The position numbers were made by a program, and so were the translations under genes. DNA of 63,054 nucleotides, counting the filler. It is 5 parts of 5 records of this genome, joined end to end, with 100 filler letters (N's around TTAATTAATTAA, not from the genome) between each part and the next. Parts side by side here need not be neighbours in the genome. Positions count along the whole stretch, not along the records: positions 29,028 to 46,983 come from DRR723986_5374; 4 more parts are not named here. One strand, given 5' to 3'. The notes beneath the pieces were generated by a model. It made no database searches, was not told where the DNA came from, and was given only the letters and a program-made list of their open reading frames with translations. Shown here piece after piece: positions 279-34,565 of this stretch; within the stretch, counting starts at the first letter, position 1; every line of letters begins with the position of its first letter.

Positions 279-3200
279 ATGGATTTGAGCATATTTCTCG
301 CTTTTGTATTCGGCGTCGCCGGATCTATTGGGCTATTATTTTTTCTACATCGCAAAGGTTTTTTAGCCAAATTTCTACAGGGATCTTTGGCACCTGCAGC
401 GACTGCGAATTCCGGTACGGAACAGCTCCCCGAAGAGCGTACGCCACAAGTGGTAACGCCTGCCGAGCCCGAACCGGAACCGGATGTTTACACCTTTGCC
501 GCACGCCTGCAAAGTTTCTGGCAGCAAGAACCGCCCCTGGACGATCTGCGCCGCAACCCCGACTATCGCGCCGGCATTGAGCTGCTGCAGGAACGCAAAG
601 CCACGCCCGAAGTGCTCCTGGCATACCTGGACGGCAACAATCAAATCGCCGCGTGTATGGCCGCCGAAGTTCTGCTGCAACAACAACACAGCCAGGCATT
701 GCCGACACTCTGTTCCGTACTGCAAATGTGGGAATCGGCTGCCGTGCGTGTGCTGCTCGATATCATCGATAAACTGGCGGAAAAACAGGCCATCGCCTTC
801 CGCGTGCTGCAGTCGATGACCGAGTTTGATTTTGAAGATAAAGATGTGCGCCTGCTGCGCACATTCCTGGAAAATCGGCGCAAAAAGTCCGATAGCCCCG
901 GACCTGAAAATGTTAACGACGACCTCGTCTTTTCGGATCGCGCTCTGCTGATGATGCTCCTGCACCGCCTGCAGCTCGATGCGTTAAAACCGCTGCTCGA
1001 AGCCTTAACACCCGAAGACACTCCCGGCACCGAACTGGAAGAACTCGAAGAATTTGCAGCCCTGCGCCGCCCGCAGGATGCCGTGGGTGACATGGACCGG
1101 CATCTGATTGAACACCGCGAGTTAACCCAAAGTGCACTCAAAATTGAACAGGCCTTCCTGGCCGACGAAACGCGCTCGGCCCTCGTGGTTGGTGAACCCG
1201 GTGTTGGCAAAAGCACCCTGATTGCCATCGTCGAACGGCGCATGTTAAGCAAAGGCTGGACGGTAGTGCGCGCCACCGCAGCACACATAATGTCGGGCCA
1301 AAAATATATTGGCGAGTTGGAGCAGCGCACCTTGCAGCTGGTAGAAGCGCTGCAGGAAAACAAACAGGTGCTCTGGATTATCGACAATATCCACGAGTTG
1401 GCGCTGGCCGGTAAACACCAGTTTTCGTCCTTCTCAATATTGGATACGGTTTTGCCATATATTGAGCGCGGCGATATTCACGTGCTGGCCGAAACTGCGG
1501 CGCGTTCCTTTGAGCGCCTCGTAACATCCAAACCACTTGTGCGCGGCGCCTTTGATGTGCACCGCGTGGAGTCCACGAATGATAGCCAGACCCTGGACAT
1601 TGTTAAAACCTGGGTGCGCGCCTATTCGCGTGGCCGCAAAGACGCGCTCTTAAACGATAAAACAATTGCAGAAGCGCTGGAGCTGTCCAACCAGTTCCTG
1701 AACCGCGATGCAGCGCCCGGCAATATCCTGCGATTCCTGGAAATTACGCGCAGTAATATGGAAGCCGCCGCCACAGGCAAACAGCGCAGCATTACGGCCG
1801 ACGATCTGATTAACACGCTCTCGCAGTTAACGGGTCTGCCGCGCACCATTCTTGATGACCGCGCCGAACTTAAACTGGACGAGTTGAAGTCCTTCTTTGG
1901 CGAGCGCGTTTTTGGGCAGGAAGAAGCAATTGACTGCCTGGTGGACCGCGTGGCAATGATCAAGTCGGGTCTAACCGATCCCACACGTCCGCTCGGTGTC
2001 TTTTTGTTTGTGGGGCCCACGGGCACCGGCAAGACCGAAATCGCCAAGTCTCTGGCGCAATTCCTGTTTGGATCCGCTGAGCGCATGCTGCGCCTGGACA
2101 TGAGTGAATTCGGCACGCCCGAAGCCCTCAGCCGTTTATTGGGAGACAGCCATCAGTCTGCAGACCAGGTCTCGTTTACCGATGAGATTCGGCGTCAGCC
2201 GTTCAGTGTGGTGCTGCTCGATGAGTTTGAAAAAGCCGCACCGCCCGTTTGGGATCTGTTCCTGCAGGTCTTTGACGACGGCCGTTTGACCGACCGCAGC
2301 GGCAACACTGCCGACTTCCGGCACAGCATCATTATCATGACCTCCAATCTGGGGGCGGCGGGGCCGCGCGAGAAAATCGGCTTCATTAACACTTCCGAAG
2401 ATTTTGAGGCGGGCCGCGTGGAAGACGTGGTCGGCCAGGTATTCCGCCGCGAATTTGTTAACCGCATCGACCGCGTGGTTGTGTTTCATCCGCTTAAACG
2501 CGAGATTATGCGCGACCTGCTGCACAAGGAATTACAGTCCGTACTTAAACGCCGCGGCCTGCGTTCGCGCACCTGGGCCGTTGAGTGGGACGAATCGGCG
2601 ATTGACTTTTTGCTGGAGCGCGGTTACACGGCCGATCTGGGCGCGCGTCCGCTCAAGCGCGCAATTGAGCGTTACCTGCTTTCGCCGCTGGCTAAAACAA
2701 TTGTGGCGAATCAGTTTCCGGATGGTGACCAGTTCCTGCATGTGCGCGCCGGCAAAGACAATGAGAGCATCGAGGTTGAATTCATCGATCCCGATCAGGA
2801 TGGTTCGAGCCGCCAGGGCGAATTGTTCCCGGCACATGATTCGAGCGCAACATCCGAGAGCGCGGCCGAGCCCAATCTGCGTGATTTGGTGCTGGATCCA
2901 CGCGGCAGCGTCGCCGAAGTGGGCCATCTCTCGCTAAAAGTAGCTGAGCTGGACAGCCGCATCAATGCCGAAGAGTGGGAGCAGGGCAAAGAGAAGGCGC
3001 TCGCCAACGCCTCTTCGCCGGAGTTCTGGGAATCCAAAGACCGTTTTGCAGTGCTGGCGCGCGTCGAATATATGGACCGCATTGAGGAAGCCATGCGCAC
3101 CGCACGCGGTTTGCTGGATCGCCTGGCGCAGGAGTCCGATGACGGCACCTACGCACCACGCATGGTGCAAAAACTGGCGCAGCATGTTTATCTGCTCGAA

Positions 3201-3752
3201 CTGGCCTTCGACTGCCTTGAGTGTGGCGAAGAGCAGGACGCCTTCCTGGTGGTTGAAGCCGTGCGCGAAGGCGCCAAACGCGCCGATGCCAATAACAACT
3301 TTGCGATGCGCATTGGAAAAATGTACTGGAACTGGGGCCAGAAGCGCGGCATGCAGGTCGAAGTTCTTGAAGAACCCGAAACCGACGAGAACTCAAATGA
3401 GCCTTTCAGGCTGATGATGTCCGTCTCCGGTTTTGGTGCGCTGCAAATCCTGCGCAGTGAGCGCGGACTGCACGTTTTTGAGCAGAACATCGATAACAAA
3501 CGCAATGCCGAACGTGCCATCGTGCGCGTGCGCGTTCTGCCGCAGCCGCTGGTTCAAAATGCACCCGACTTCGATCCGCTGCTGGCCGCACGGTCCGCGC
3601 TGGAAGCCGAAGGTGAGAGCACAGCCAAAATTATCAGACGCTACCAAAAAGAACCAACACCGCTGGTGCGTGACGTTGAACGCAAGTGGCGCTCCGGCCG
3701 TCTGGACCGCGTGCTGGATGGCGACTTTGACGTCATCGGCAGCCCGGCTTAA
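279..3752 (+). CDS. Membrane-anchored ClpA/ClpB-family double AAA+ ATPase fused to a C-terminal release factor 2-like (PCRF-like) module lacking GGQ
   Basis: N-terminal hydrophobic helix; Walker A motifs GEPGVGKS and GPTGTGKT; Clp signatures GQKYIGELEQR, RLDMSEF, VVLLDEFEKA, LQVFDDGRLTD, IIMTSNLG, GARPLKRAIE; C-terminal RF2-like blocks SPEFW, KMYWNWGQKRG, LRSERGLH, IRRY...LVRD...VLDGDFD. Confidence 0.85.
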   Translation: MDLSIFLAFVFGVAGSIGLLFFLHRKGFLAKFLQGSLAPAATANSGTEQLPEERTPQVVTPAEPEPEPDVYTFAARLQSFWQQEPPLDDLRRNPDYRAGIELLQERKATPEVLLAYLDGNNQIAACMAAEVLLQQQHSQALPTLCSVLQMWESAAVRVLLDIIDKLAEKQAIAFRVLQSMTEFDFEDKDVRLLRTFLENRRKKSDSPGPENVNDDLVFSDRALLMMLLHRLQLDALKPLLEALTPEDTPGTELEELEEFAALRRPQDAVGDMDRHLIEHRELTQSALKIEQAFLADETRSALVVGEPGVGKSTLIAIVERRMLSKGWTVVRATAAHIMSGQKYIGELEQRTLQLVEALQENKQVLWIIDNIHELALAGKHQFSSFSILDTVLPYIERGDIHVLAETAARSFERLVTSKPLVRGAFDVHRVESTNDSQTLDIVKTWVRAYSRGRKDALLNDKTIAEALELSNQFLNRDAAPGNILRFLEITRSNMEAAATGKQRSITADDLINTLSQLTGLPRTILDDRAELKLDELKSFFGERVFGQEEAIDCLVDRVAMIKSGLTDPTRPLGVFLFVGPTGTGKTEIAKSLAQFLFGSAERMLRLDMSEFGTPEALSRLLGDSHQSADQVSFTDEIRRQPFSVVLLDEFEKAAPPVWDLFLQVFDDGRLTDRSGNTADFRHSIIIMTSNLGAAGPREKIGFINTSEDFEAGRVEDVVGQVFRREFVNRIDRVVVFHPLKREIMRDLLHKELQSVLKRRGLRSRTWAVEWDESAIDFLLERGYTADLGARPLKRAIERYLLSPLAKTIVANQFPDGDQFLHVRAGKDNESIEVEFIDPDQDGSSRQGELFPAHDSSATSESAAEPNLRDLVLDPRGSVAEVGHLSLKVAELDSRINAEEWEQGKEKALANASSPEFWESKDRFAVLARVEYMDRIEEAMRTARGLLDRLAQESDDGTYAPRMVQKLAQHVYLLELAFDCLECGEEQDAFLVVEAVREGAKRADANNNFAMRIGKMYWNWGQKRGMQVEVLEEPETDENSNEPFRLMMSVSGFGALQILRSERGLHVFEQNIDNKRNAERAIVRVRVLPQPLVQNAPDFDPLLAARSALEAEGESTAKIIRRYQKEPTPLVRDVERKWRSGRLDRVLDGDFDVIGSPA

Positions 3753-32778: not shown

Positions 32779-33441
32779 TCAATCTTCTAGCTCGGCACCC
32801 CAATACAGGTAATCCATCCACGTTTGGTGCAATTCGCCATTAATCATAGGTTGCTTGCGTGCAGCCGCATCCAATTGATACCCTGTCGGAGCGTAAGGCT
32901 GACGCAGCAACTTCATCCCCGCCTGTTTGGGCGTTCTGTTTGCTTTTCTCAAATTATCCTTGCTACAGCACGCAACGATGTTGGACCAATTCGACCCTCC
33001 GCCTTTGCTGCGCGGAACAACATGATCAAATGTCAGCTCTTTGACGGGGAACCGTTCGCCGCAATACTGGCATCTAAAGCCATCTCGTAAAAACAGGTTG
33101 TAGCGGGTAAATCCGACCCGCTTTCGTTTGTGAAAATTCCTAAGCGCAACAACCGCCGGAACTTCAAAAGACTGCGTCGCCGAATGCACGATACAATCTT
33201 CGTAGGTCTTGATTTGAATAACCCGCTCTTGGTGCACGGCGACAAATGCGCTCTGCCAGCTCCAGACGGATAAGGGCGCCCAACTTAGAGGCTGCATATT
33301 TGCGTTCAAAACAAGCGTACGCAGCTGCGATCCCGTTTGTTTTATGCGGGATCCATCCATTTCAGACCCCACCTCTCTGGCGGTGGTCTTTCGCGTGTCT
33401 TGGCGAAATACAGGCTGTGCGTCGTATGTGCTGAGGGACAT
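32779..33441 (-). CDS. HNH endonuclease (McrA/HNH_5-like)
   Basis: LVLNANMQPLS N-domain; RDGFRCQYCG, LTFDHVVPRSKGG, WSNIVACCSKDNLRK; GGAGAGG RBS. Confidence 0.92.
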   Translation of the reverse strand: MSLSTYDAQPVFRQDTRKTTAREVGSEMDGSRIKQTGSQLRTLVLNANMQPLSWAPLSVWSWQSAFVAVHQERVIQIKTYEDCIVHSATQSFEVPAVVALRNFHKRKRVGFTRYNLFLRDGFRCQYCGERFPVKELTFDHVVPRSKGGGSNWSNIVACCSKDNLRKANRTPKQAGMKLLRQPYAPTGYQLDAAARKQPMINGELHQTWMDYLYWGAELED

Positions 33442-33460
33442 TTTGGTTCACCTCTCCCCA

Positions 33461-33495
33461 AGAAAAGCAAAAGGCGCGTGATGCACACGCGCCTT
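33461..33495 (-). terminator. Intrinsic terminator immediately upstream of the HNH RBS
   Basis: Minus strand AAGGCGCGTG-TGCAT-CACGCGCCTT then TTGCTTTTCT. Confidence 0.75.
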
Positions 33496-33830
33496 ATAAC
33501 GTTTCAAATTTTCAATCTGATAAGAGTCCCAAGAGGTGCTTACAGTAGCCCCATGACTTCGCTCTTTTTCCTGCATCCTAGGATTGGGGGCCACCCCCCT
33601 CTCACTGCACAGTCGCAACATCTCAGCGACCCGAGGTGTGAACACCTGCTGCACAAATGCCTTTAGGCGTCTCGGGGGCATATCGCTCCGAATCCTATCT
33701 CCCGCTTTCACGCGCAAAATAGACATATTGCAATCATACCCAATACTGAGACTTGCACCCTTCAAAGACTCTCTCCTCGCCCTGCGTCGCCATTGATCGG
33801 CCCCAAGGCGGGGATCCCCGCCCCGGCATA
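33461..33830 (-). ncRNA. Candidate ~370-nt structured ncRNA or 5' leader of the HNH gene
   Basis: Bounded by a promoter and a terminator; at least 7 hand-foldable hairpins; no recognisable protein. Confidence 0.55.
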
Positions 33831-33834
33831 GGGA

Positions 33835-33891
33835 TAACTATATATCGTGGTTGGATCGTGACAAGTCCCGTTTCACCACAATATCTCGATC
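33835..33891 (-). promoter_or_regulatory. Sigma70 promoter overlapped/flanked by tandem NrdR-like boxes
   Basis: -35 TTGTCA (33864-33859), N16, -10 TATAGT (33842-33837); boxes TAACTATATATCGTGG (33835-33850) and CCACAATATCTCGATC (33876-33891), 41 bp apart. Confidence 0.65.
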
Positions 33892-33926
33892 GCAGCTAAT
33901 CCGCTATGGTAACACTGGCATGACAG

Positions 33927-33935
33927 TTATCCACA
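33927..33935 (+). promoter_or_regulatory. DnaA box
   Basis: Perfect TTATCCACA. Confidence 0.55.
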
Positions 33936-33986
33936 GCATCAGAGAACGGTTGCTTTTTTTGAGTGCAAAGCGGTATGGCACAGGGC

Positions 33987-34565
33987 ATGACCAAATTGAT
34001 CCGCTTCAACAAACCTTTTGATGTGCTCCCCCAATTTACCGATCGCGGGACACAGGGAACGCCACGCCGAACTCTGTCTGATTTCATAGAAATGCCCGGC
34101 GTCTATCCTGCCGGCAGATTGGATCGCGACAGCGAAGGCTTAATGCTGCTCACGGATGACGGGGCACTTCAGGCCCGGATCACGGACCCCAAACATAAGA
34201 TGCCAAAAACGTATTGGGTTCAGGTTGAAGGCGAACCAGATCAGTCCGCGATCGACGCGCTGTGCTCGGGGCTTGTTCTTAAAGACGGGCCAACCAAACC
34301 GGCACAGGCAAAACGGATGGCCGAACCTGATATTTTGTGGCCCAGAACGCCGCCCATTCGGGTGCGCAAATCCGTCCCTGACAGTTGGATCTCCTTGACG
34401 ATACACGAAGGGCGCAACCGGCAAGTTCGACGGATGACCGCAGCTGTCGGGCATCCGACTTTGCGATTGATCCGTTACCGCATCGGGAACTGGACGCTTG
34501 ATGGGTTAGATACCGGGGTTTGGCAATCCATCGCGCCGCCACTTCATCCTGCACGACAACGCTGA
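33987..34565 (+). CDS. rluE: rRNA pseudouridine synthase, RluE-like
   Basis: [43 protein letters not shown]. Confidence 0.9.

Follow-up and report, generated by a model that had tools for sequence, protein, structure and literature searches.

In the window analysed here, by which we mean the whole stretch of 63,054 nucleotides made of five joined parts, an HNH endonuclease gene on the minus strand is preceded by a leader of ~390 nt, which is probably the worn-down front part of a different HNH gene, comprising the old promoter, the 5' untranslated region (5'UTR) and ~100-125 codons. Comparison with related loci establishes the homology of this leader to coding sequence, two conserved islands within it and an open frame that has been maintained while the middle drifted. 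The explanation to which we incline, with a confidence little better than even, is that the leader now serves as a sequence-independent leader open reading frame (ORF), whose translation would mask a terminator inherited from the older gene and would be coupled to translation of the HNH gene, in the manner of pyrBI-type attenuation. An earlier note on this DNA, made by a model from the letters alone, had described the same region as a highly structured RNA of ~370 nt with its own promoter and terminator, and had proposed either a non-coding RNA partner of the nuclease or a new attenuator or riboswitch.

Two kinds of HNH gene have to be distinguished, for which the names type 1 and type 2 are coined in the present analysis; L-numbers denote loci and G-numbers genomes of relatives, WIN denotes the window, and leader positions written as +N count from the end of the -10 box. 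Type 1 (194 aa, N-terminus MDGDFRTEF, mean pairwise identity 87% among 26 sequences) is the usual HNH gene of most Rhodobacterales and stands behind a conserved promoter and a 5'UTR of ~72 nt with a 5' hairpin; in 28 of 30 loci a distance of 58-81 nt separates its start codon from the -10 box. Type 2, comprising the genes of the window, L001-L008, L010, L012, L037 and L111, is ~45-54% identical to type 1. A DNA profile of 30 type-1 loci (5'UTR and 145 codons), run with nhmmer, had two collinear alignments to the window leader, one over +5..+99 (E = 1.3e-11) and one over the terminator, +331..+380 (E = 0.028); it aligned over the whole leader of L003 (6-352, E = 1.2e-27) and also matched L037, L008 and L111. 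With the type-1 protein as query, tblastn found the upstream region of L003 over 122 aa (E = 1.6e-12) and that of L037 (E = 6.9e-6), and in the window leader only RRVCITRLLLFLGRG (E = 0.4). The collinear flanks and the sister lineages together suggest that the middle of the window leader is likewise homologous to type 1. A single HNH gene of this family and no second intact copy was found in G001-G005, with a remnant besides in G003.

In a maximum-likelihood tree of 87 core sequences, from which rows without the motif pattern (e.g. L011 and L013-L031) were left out, type 1 constitutes the Rhodobacterales clade and type 2 a separate long-branch clade (support 100/99) in which a Devosia sequence is included; this nesting of the Devosia gene within the Rhodobacterales type-2 clade suggests transfer between orders. 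Our reading is that the 3' part of a type-1 gene was displaced in place by a divergent, horizontally moving type-2 gene, in one event or several. The distance from the leader hairpin described below to the HNH start is 109-111 nt in L003, L037 and L111, while in the window 32 nt plus an N-terminal extension of 81 nt give the same total, which points to a shared junction; the common spacing of ~110 nt between hairpin and type-2 start within Rhodobacterales is compatible with one event and subsequent deletions. Site-specific homing of type 2 into type 1 was considered and is unsupported, the remnants ending variously at type-1 residue ~68 (L011), ~133 (L009) and ~120 (L003).

Truncated type-1 pieces directly upstream of intact type-2 genes were also seen in other orders, namely in Devosia (L009:2498-2866 and 2995-3537), where the piece and a Rhodobacterales type-1 protein share 67% identity, and in a Rhizobiales metagenome-assembled genome (L011:2002-2151 and 2271-2813).

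The leader ORF of the window starts at a TTG one codon upstream of the lost ancestral ATG, in the same frame, the position of that ATG now reading AAG. Its start, GGAGAGAG-N3-TTG, is identical in L002, and an ATG is kept at the ancestral position in L003, L115, L008 and L111. One reading frame runs without interruption from the region of the ancestral start up to the HNH start in the window, L002, L003, L115, L037, L008 and L111, and the leader stop is placed at that start as TGA-N6-ATG in the window, TGA-N5-ATG in L002, TAGcATG in L003 and L115, and ATGA in L037, L008 and L111; the other two frames of the window and L002 hold 5-9 stops each. In dinucleotide shuffles of six leaders an open frame was met in 114, 179, 38, 985, 1360 and 933 of 5000 cases (2.3%, 3.6%, 0.8%, 20%, 27% and 19%), and the argument from openness can be no stronger than the joint pattern and the stop placement make it. 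With the observed substitutions placed at random, the frame stayed open in 469 of 20000 trials for WIN-L002 (2.3%) and in 543 of 20000 for L003-L115 (2.7%); both indels within the compared leader ORFs are of 3 nt.

The peptide presents a different picture from the frame. Substitutions fall on the three codon positions as 31/47/39 between WIN and L002 and as 32/35/37 between L003 and L115, with synonymous to non-synonymous ratios of 32:85 and 33:71, near neutral, and the codon-position identity of window and L002 (0.705/0.552/0.629) is lowest at the second position. Such flat or inverted distributions are not those of purifying selection on the protein. The window and L001 are set apart by 5 synonymous and 4 non-synonymous changes. 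Pfam gave no matches on the leader ORF, the leader peptides of different lineages do not align with one another, and the window ORF crosses the hairpin in a frame other than the ancestral one. It appears, on this comparison, that the act of translation is under selection and the peptide is not.

The first conserved island is an intrinsic terminator, which sits within the last 16 codons of the leader ORF (33765-33448), directly upstream of the HNH ATG at 33441. Its counterpart in type 1 consists of the codons KRVAFTRFNLFL, reading AAAAGCGCGTGGCCTTCACGCGCTTTAATTTGTTT, which form a 7-bp hairpin followed by a T-rich run at nt 258-276 of the coding sequence (CDS), and the window terminator descends from these codons. 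All 7 pairs of the type-1 stem are present in 22 of 30 loci and at least 6 in 24 of 30. Synonymous-codon identity in type 1, with a mean of 0.51 for the gene, reaches its maximum of 0.71-0.76 at codons 82-96, and Phe and Asn codons end in T at 65 of 90 sites inside FNLFL vs 144 of 379 elsewhere (Fisher p = 4e-9, uncorrected for relatedness). Type-1 tails hold 7-9 T where all 7 pairs form, compared with 5-8 T where 5 or fewer remain, and in loci that have lost stem pairing the tail tends back to GC-rich synonyms. Hairpin and T-run are kept in all 6 long leaders; between L003 and L115 hairpin and tail are identical at 37/37 positions though the leader ORFs differ at 104/381 sites, and in the window clade the stem has grown from 7 to 10 bp.

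The other island is the promoter with its 5'UTR. Relative to L002, 20-nt windows are 0.85-1.00 identical over promoter and 5'UTR and 0.90 at the terminator, vs 0.25-0.70 from +81 to +340; HNH third codon positions of the same pair are 45% identical, the HNH as a whole being 87% and the leader 74% identical. The full intergenic sequence recurs in L001 (97.9% identical) and L002 (74.5%) only, L003, L004 and L037 having just 55-69 nt around the promoter in common with it. Among 401 family genomes sampled, 58 gave a match at E <= 0.01, yet the full-length leader was found in 2 of the 401 (G001 and G002); the remaining matches are confined to query positions 12-157, covering the promoter and the initial ~70-85 nt of the transcript. 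In each of the five genomes checked the element occurs once. Four DNA metagenome runs yielded near-identical contigs and one L002-like contig with a replaced middle, both leader ends being kept and 244 unlike letters standing in place of 247. The metagenome scan further gave three long-leader loci (L115, L116 and L118, the last equal to L003), all of the L003 lineage, and L114, whose HNH matches that of the window at 100% and whose upstream sequence is too little for a leader comparison.

A 29-nt promoter block, CTTGTCA-N8-CCACGATATATAGT, recurs, with 0-6 mismatches, ahead of the HNH gene of many Rhodobacterales loci and is followed there by the 5'UTR of ~72 nt, counted from the end of the -10 box. 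A sigma-32-type promoter was considered as a possible reading; the scan supports a sigma-70 match. Judged from promoter spacing only, transcription would start at ~33829, and the 5'-terminal hairpin P1 begins ~3 nt past this point. The core of P1 keeps 6/6 pairs in L002; in a 39-sequence 5'UTR alignment fitted to the structure, and so biased in favour of structure, 92.7% of its cells are paired, compensatory changes affect 3 of 9 pairs, and 15 compensatory cells compare with 6.1 +/- 2.4 in shuffles. Many of its pairs are G-U, functional on the minus strand only. For the short hairpin P2, 75.4% of cells are paired and both sides have changed in 2 of 3 pairs. The purine-rich block beyond it, which nhmmer aligned to the type-1 5'UTR, is covered by 20-nt windows 0.95 (+41..+60) and 1.00 (+61..+80) identical to L002. 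A covariance model of the 39 sequences had 39 matches in 54 sources, every one of them Rhodobacterales, and none in the seven included loci of other orders. A pairing of the P1 3' strand with the purine block near the Shine-Dalgarno, drawn by eye, was dropped, as it is not kept in L003, L004 and L037, type-2 leaders with divergent P1.

An imperfect inverted repeat, GATATTGTGG ... CCACGATAT, flanks the -35 box (window 33849-33889 (-)), and its arms, nearly invariant in five genera, may constitute an operator for some regulator.

These comparisons sort the structural claims of the earlier note. The promoter with its -10 box at 33842-33837 is borne out (10/12 consensus positions, conserved across many Rhodobacterales loci), as is the 10-bp terminator stem with a U-rich tail, all 10 pairs being kept in L002. 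Every stem that the note listed can be drawn in the window sequence, and a 394-nt stretch folds at -151.9 kcal/mol against -136.7 +/- 5.6 in 100 shuffles (z = -2.73; 0 shuffles as stable). The highly structured RNA stands only at its ends, P1 with 6/6 and the terminator with 10/10 pairs; the five middle stems keep 4/7, 3/5, 1/5, 3/5 and 5/7 pairs in L002 and are not conserved. The check for conservation and covariation that the note had asked for gave compensatory changes in P1, middle stems without conservation and a terminator conserved without covariation.

In the mechanism that we favour, ribosomes would start from the old ribosome-binding site at TTG 33765 and would translate the 105-codon ORF, whose amino-acid sequence would by now be irrelevant, running through the inherited terminator (33495-33458) and halting at the UGA within the HNH Shine-Dalgarno region, 6 nt ahead of the HNH AUG. 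Tight coupling of ribosome and polymerase would mask the terminator and hand the ribosomes on to the HNH gene, and leader translation would also prevent Rho polarity. Should leader translation lag, the hairpin would form, transcription would end at ~33460 with an RNA of ~370 nt, and the HNH gene would be off. We read this putative control as a ribosome-dependent form of known attenuation, built from a gene remnant. The attenuator or riboswitch of the earlier note survives in part: a conserved terminator does lie between a strong promoter and the HNH ribosome-binding site, but no sign of a riboswitch was seen, and the control would depend on ribosomes by way of the 105-codon ORF.

A broader proposal, which we advance tentatively and with some doubt, is that hairpin, T-tract and promoter/5'UTR together were already an old translation-sensing attenuator in the CDS of a housekeeping-like type-1 HNH nuclease across Rhodobacterales, or equally a maker of a conserved 5' RNA of ~350 nt, which was selected in itself. 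Its host sequence would have ceased to encode a meaningful protein once a foreign HNH allele took over, and would have been kept over family-scale time as a sequence-free translated leader controlling the displacing nuclease.

If the favoured mechanism is true, an intrinsic terminator would be embedded and conserved within a CDS as a regulatory device, visible as family-wide constraint on synonymous sites, and the fragment of a displaced gene would persist as a leader ORF selected only for being translated. Gene finders would label such an ORF a hypothetical protein, and RNA hunters a structured non-coding RNA. Marine Rhodobacterales would, moreover, have a conserved HNH nuclease, apparently uncharacterised, under unusually tight cis-control, that is, behind a promoter that hardly varies and a 5'UTR motif without a counterpart in Rfam, which makes the function of the nuclease worth testing. 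A literature search, with supplementary files outside its scope, found nothing on the leader of this HNH family, on a small RNA (sRNA) at the locus or on remnant-derived leader ORFs.

Several observations weigh against this mechanism. Transcription start, termination, read-through, leader translation and coupling are all steps that we infer. A chance open frame occurs in 19-27% of shuffles for L037, L008 and L111, the start codon of the window ORF is a TTG, and the middle of the window leader can no longer be aligned to type 1. The short leaders of the type-2 loci L004-L007, L010 and L012 lack both the leader ORF and the hairpin, which implies that the device is dispensable for the nuclease. 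The hairpin is nearly invariant and therefore offers conservation and synonymous constraint without covariation; a role of the hairpin at DNA level is possible, and so is a stop for antisense transcription, given the A-tract preceding it. The relative rates are also inconsistent. The leader ORFs of the window and L001 are unlike at 9/315 sites (2.9%) vs 31/220 HNH third positions (14%), a slowness that could reflect an extra constraint on the RNA or a recombination mosaic, whereas between L003 and L115 the leader (+73..+454) differs at 104/381 sites (27%) vs 24/190 third positions (12.6%). The leader ORF thus evolves ~2x faster than HNH third positions in the one pair and 5x slower in the other, and a recombination mosaic is possible behind the discrepancy.

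Of the competing accounts, an unlikely but still serious one treats the leader as a passive remnant, the open frame being kept only against Rho-dependent polarity on the HNH gene and the hairpin for another reason, such as a DNA-level site or a block of antisense or divergent transcription. The relatives with short leaders, which manage without it, agree with such a view, as do the unconstrained amino-acid sequence and the form of the hairpin, a palindrome with an A-tract upstream and a T-tract downstream that could serve both strands. It accords poorly with hairpin and T-tract being the sole conserved island of a drifting ORF in every lineage, with the lengthening of the stem from 7 to 10 bp in the window clade, and with the loss of T-rich codons that accompanies stem loss in type 1, as would be expected of a terminator unit.

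We give a rather low probability, too, to the proposal that the terminated transcript of ~370 nt is a trans-acting sRNA derived from the 5'UTR, with the conserved 5' ~80 nt as its active part and the HNH gene reached by read-through only. A strong conserved promoter and a canonical conserved terminator do bracket the region, conserved ends around a variable middle would suit many small RNAs as well, the leader of window and L001 is more conserved than HNH third codon positions, and the unit from promoter to hairpin (~350 nt) also occurs within intact type-1 genes. The conserved 5' part, however, is the ordinary HNH 5'UTR and ribosome-binding site in the short-leader loci, and the open frame, the in-frame indels and the stop placement at the HNH start in 6 lineages would go unexplained.

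That the 105-aa ORF encodes a real, fast-evolving small protein, for instance an immunity or antitoxin partner translationally coupled to the nuclease, we consider improbable. The earlier note had named this ORF as a product that would overturn its RNA, and the frame is indeed kept open, overlapping or abutting the HNH start as in many two-gene cassettes; the 5 synonymous and 4 non-synonymous changes between window and L001 are compatible with it as well. Set against it are the second codon position as the least conserved vs L002, the flat substitutions of L003-L115, the lack of a Pfam match, the unalignable peptides of the lineages, the reading of the hairpin in a non-ancestral frame and the absence of the ORF from six type-2 loci, so that translation as an act appears selected and the peptide does not.

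Rfam 15 covariance models over the entire window gave 0 matches at gathering score, and ARAGORN found no tRNA or tmRNA, in line with the earlier note's failure to place the RNA among known riboswitches or housekeeping RNAs. In E-value mode over 33300-34100 no HEARO appeared up to E = 10, the only matches being sR53 (E = 3.9) and RAGATH-10 (19.3 bits vs a gathering score of 41.2, E = 0.66), which was rejected as noise. The HNH protein reached 42.1 bits vs a cut-off of 175 with the NCBIfam guided_IscB model, its HNH part alone aligning, and 54 bits vs 375 in the Cas9 test; by Pfam it has HNH domains only and no RuvC, as the note had described it (an HNH_5-type protein). A guide or scaffold RNA of an RNA-guided HNH system (IscB-like, with HEARO/omega RNA) or a metabolite riboswitch, for which speak the domain-level resemblance to the HNH of IscB and Cas9 and an RNA directly upstream, is therefore very improbable and largely refuted, there being no HEARO or other Rfam match, no RuvC, a score far below the IscB cut-off, an unconserved RNA middle, a full leader in 2/401 family genomes and a derivation of the leader from coding sequence. 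The non-coding partner (guide, scaffold or antitoxin) of the earlier note is likewise unsupported, its middle drifting almost freely, the leader being homologous to the CDS of a displaced HNH gene and type-2 HNH genes standing in six other loci without such a leader. With an RNA-guided HNH system set aside, a false lead is removed.

Table 1. Coordinates of the leader, the HNH gene and adjoining features in the window.
Feature	Position	Strand	Basis or remark
Promoter, sigma-70-like: -35 TTGTCA 33864-33859, 16-nt spacer, -10 TATAGT 33842-33837		(-)	10/12 consensus positions
5'-terminal hairpin P1, CCGGGGCGGG / CCCGCCUUGG, loop GAUC	33803-33826	(-)	contains the stem 33807-33822 of the earlier note
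Short hairpin P2 (GCC-loop-GGC), part of the conserved 5'UTR motif	33789-33801	(-)	support weak
Purine-rich block CAGGGCGAGGAGAGAGUC with Shine-Dalgarno of the ancestral HNH start, now leader ORF start	33766-33785	(-)	conserved
Leader ORF, 105 codons, TTG 33765 to TGA 33450-33448	33448-33765	(-)	probably the decayed 5' half of a type-1 HNH gene
Fast-drifting leader middle with stems 33695-33722, 33634-33647, 33612-33630, 33586-33599, 33504-33520	33500-33740	(-)	comparison with L002 and a metagenome contig
Intrinsic terminator: 10-bp stem, 5-nt loop 33495-33471, and T-rich tail UUGCUUUUCUU	33458-33495	(-)	motif scan, conservation
HNH Shine-Dalgarno GGGGAGAGG, immediately adjoining the stop codon of the leader ORF	33451-33459	(-)	read from sequence
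HNH endonuclease gene, type 2, 220 aa	32779-33441	(-)	Pfam HNH_5 3.4e-14, HNH 3.8e-13
Terminator-like hairpin immediately 3' of the HNH stop codon	32758-32777	(-)	motif scan
Pseudouridine synthase gene	33963-34565	(+)	divergent from HNH

With respect to the HNH gene itself, ATG 33441 is supported as its start, since over the first 27 codons the codon-position identity to L002 is 0.78/0.67/0.37 and the alternative Met28 is absent from L002. These codons (window 33361-33441 (-)) form a clade-specific N-terminal extension common to the window, L001 and L002, the other type-2 genes beginning at the equivalent of Met28 (MDG...); to judge from the spacing, the extension takes the place of sequence that in L003, L037 and L111 belongs to the leader ORF. 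On the antisense strand the codons for KRVGFTRY (window 33102-33122 (+)) give a hairpin that resembles a terminator, T-run included; unlike the type-1 hairpin, it is not conserved among type-2 genes. The protein has alphaproteobacterial relatives by the hundred, with 556 of 600 candidate stretches, the best 80 of which were kept. The gene is AT-richer than its neighbours, as the earlier note had remarked, with a GC fraction of 0.514 vs 0.564-0.573 for neighbour genes and 0.558 for the window. Its remark that other spacers are much shorter holds for the median gap (45 nt, with a 90th percentile of ~400 nt, by a crude greedy ORF call), but three gaps (766, 706 and 626 nt) are longer than the spacer of 521 nt.

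The compared loci share the order HhH-GPD, Abhydrolase_2, HNH, which speaks for the type-1 origin of the leader. The HNH promoter comes immediately after the esterase gene in type-1 loci and in some of the type-2 loci; in the window, by comparison with L044 and L005, the pseudouridine synthase gene intervenes between the Abhydrolase_2 gene and that promoter as an insertion in opposite orientation. The divergent intergenic region holds the only perfect DnaA-box consensus of the window, TTATCCACA at 33927-33935 (+), invariant in L001 and L002, for which the chance expectation is 0.28 per window, with at least one box in 28 of 100 shuffles. A perfect DnaA box, TGTGGATAA, also stands directly after the -10 box in the type-1 loci L086 and L095.

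Compared with known systems, the window shares with IscB and its HEARO/omega RNA, and with Cas9, an HNH domain of the same superfamily and a structured RNA region adjoining the gene; its protein differs in having neither RuvC nor bridge helix and in scoring far below the family cut-offs, and its RNA in matching no HEARO and in being unconserved in structure. The overlap of leader stop and HNH start in L037, L008 and L111 is that of ATGA-coupled gene pairs, the window having TGA-N6-ATG instead, but the upstream partner here is not a conserved protein, conservation being confined to its open frame. UpsM, upstream of mraZ in Rhodobacter sphaeroides, is a 5'UTR-derived sRNA ended by a terminator before the gene. 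It resembles the window in its strong promoter, long leader, intrinsic terminator before the CDS and bacterial order; the window leader differs in carrying a maintained open frame and in being homologous to coding sequence.

The closest likeness is to pyrBI, whose leader ORF, pyrL, has 44 codons. The sequence anatomy of the window is pyrBI-like, with a Shine-Dalgarno and start, an ORF through the hairpin and a stop beside the gene. In passages of PMC5021804, attenuation of pyrBI in E. coli is described as the blocking of hairpin formation by a closely following ribosome, and its promoter-proximal leader ORF, like that of the window, spans an intrinsic terminator that immediately precedes the gene under control; PMC4824070 describes E. 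coli terminators late in coding regions that are repressed by translation. Unlike pyrBI, the window has no evident nucleotide-sensing pause site, and its leader ORF of 105 codons, apparently a decayed gene fragment, ends in a stop placed for translational coupling to the downstream gene.

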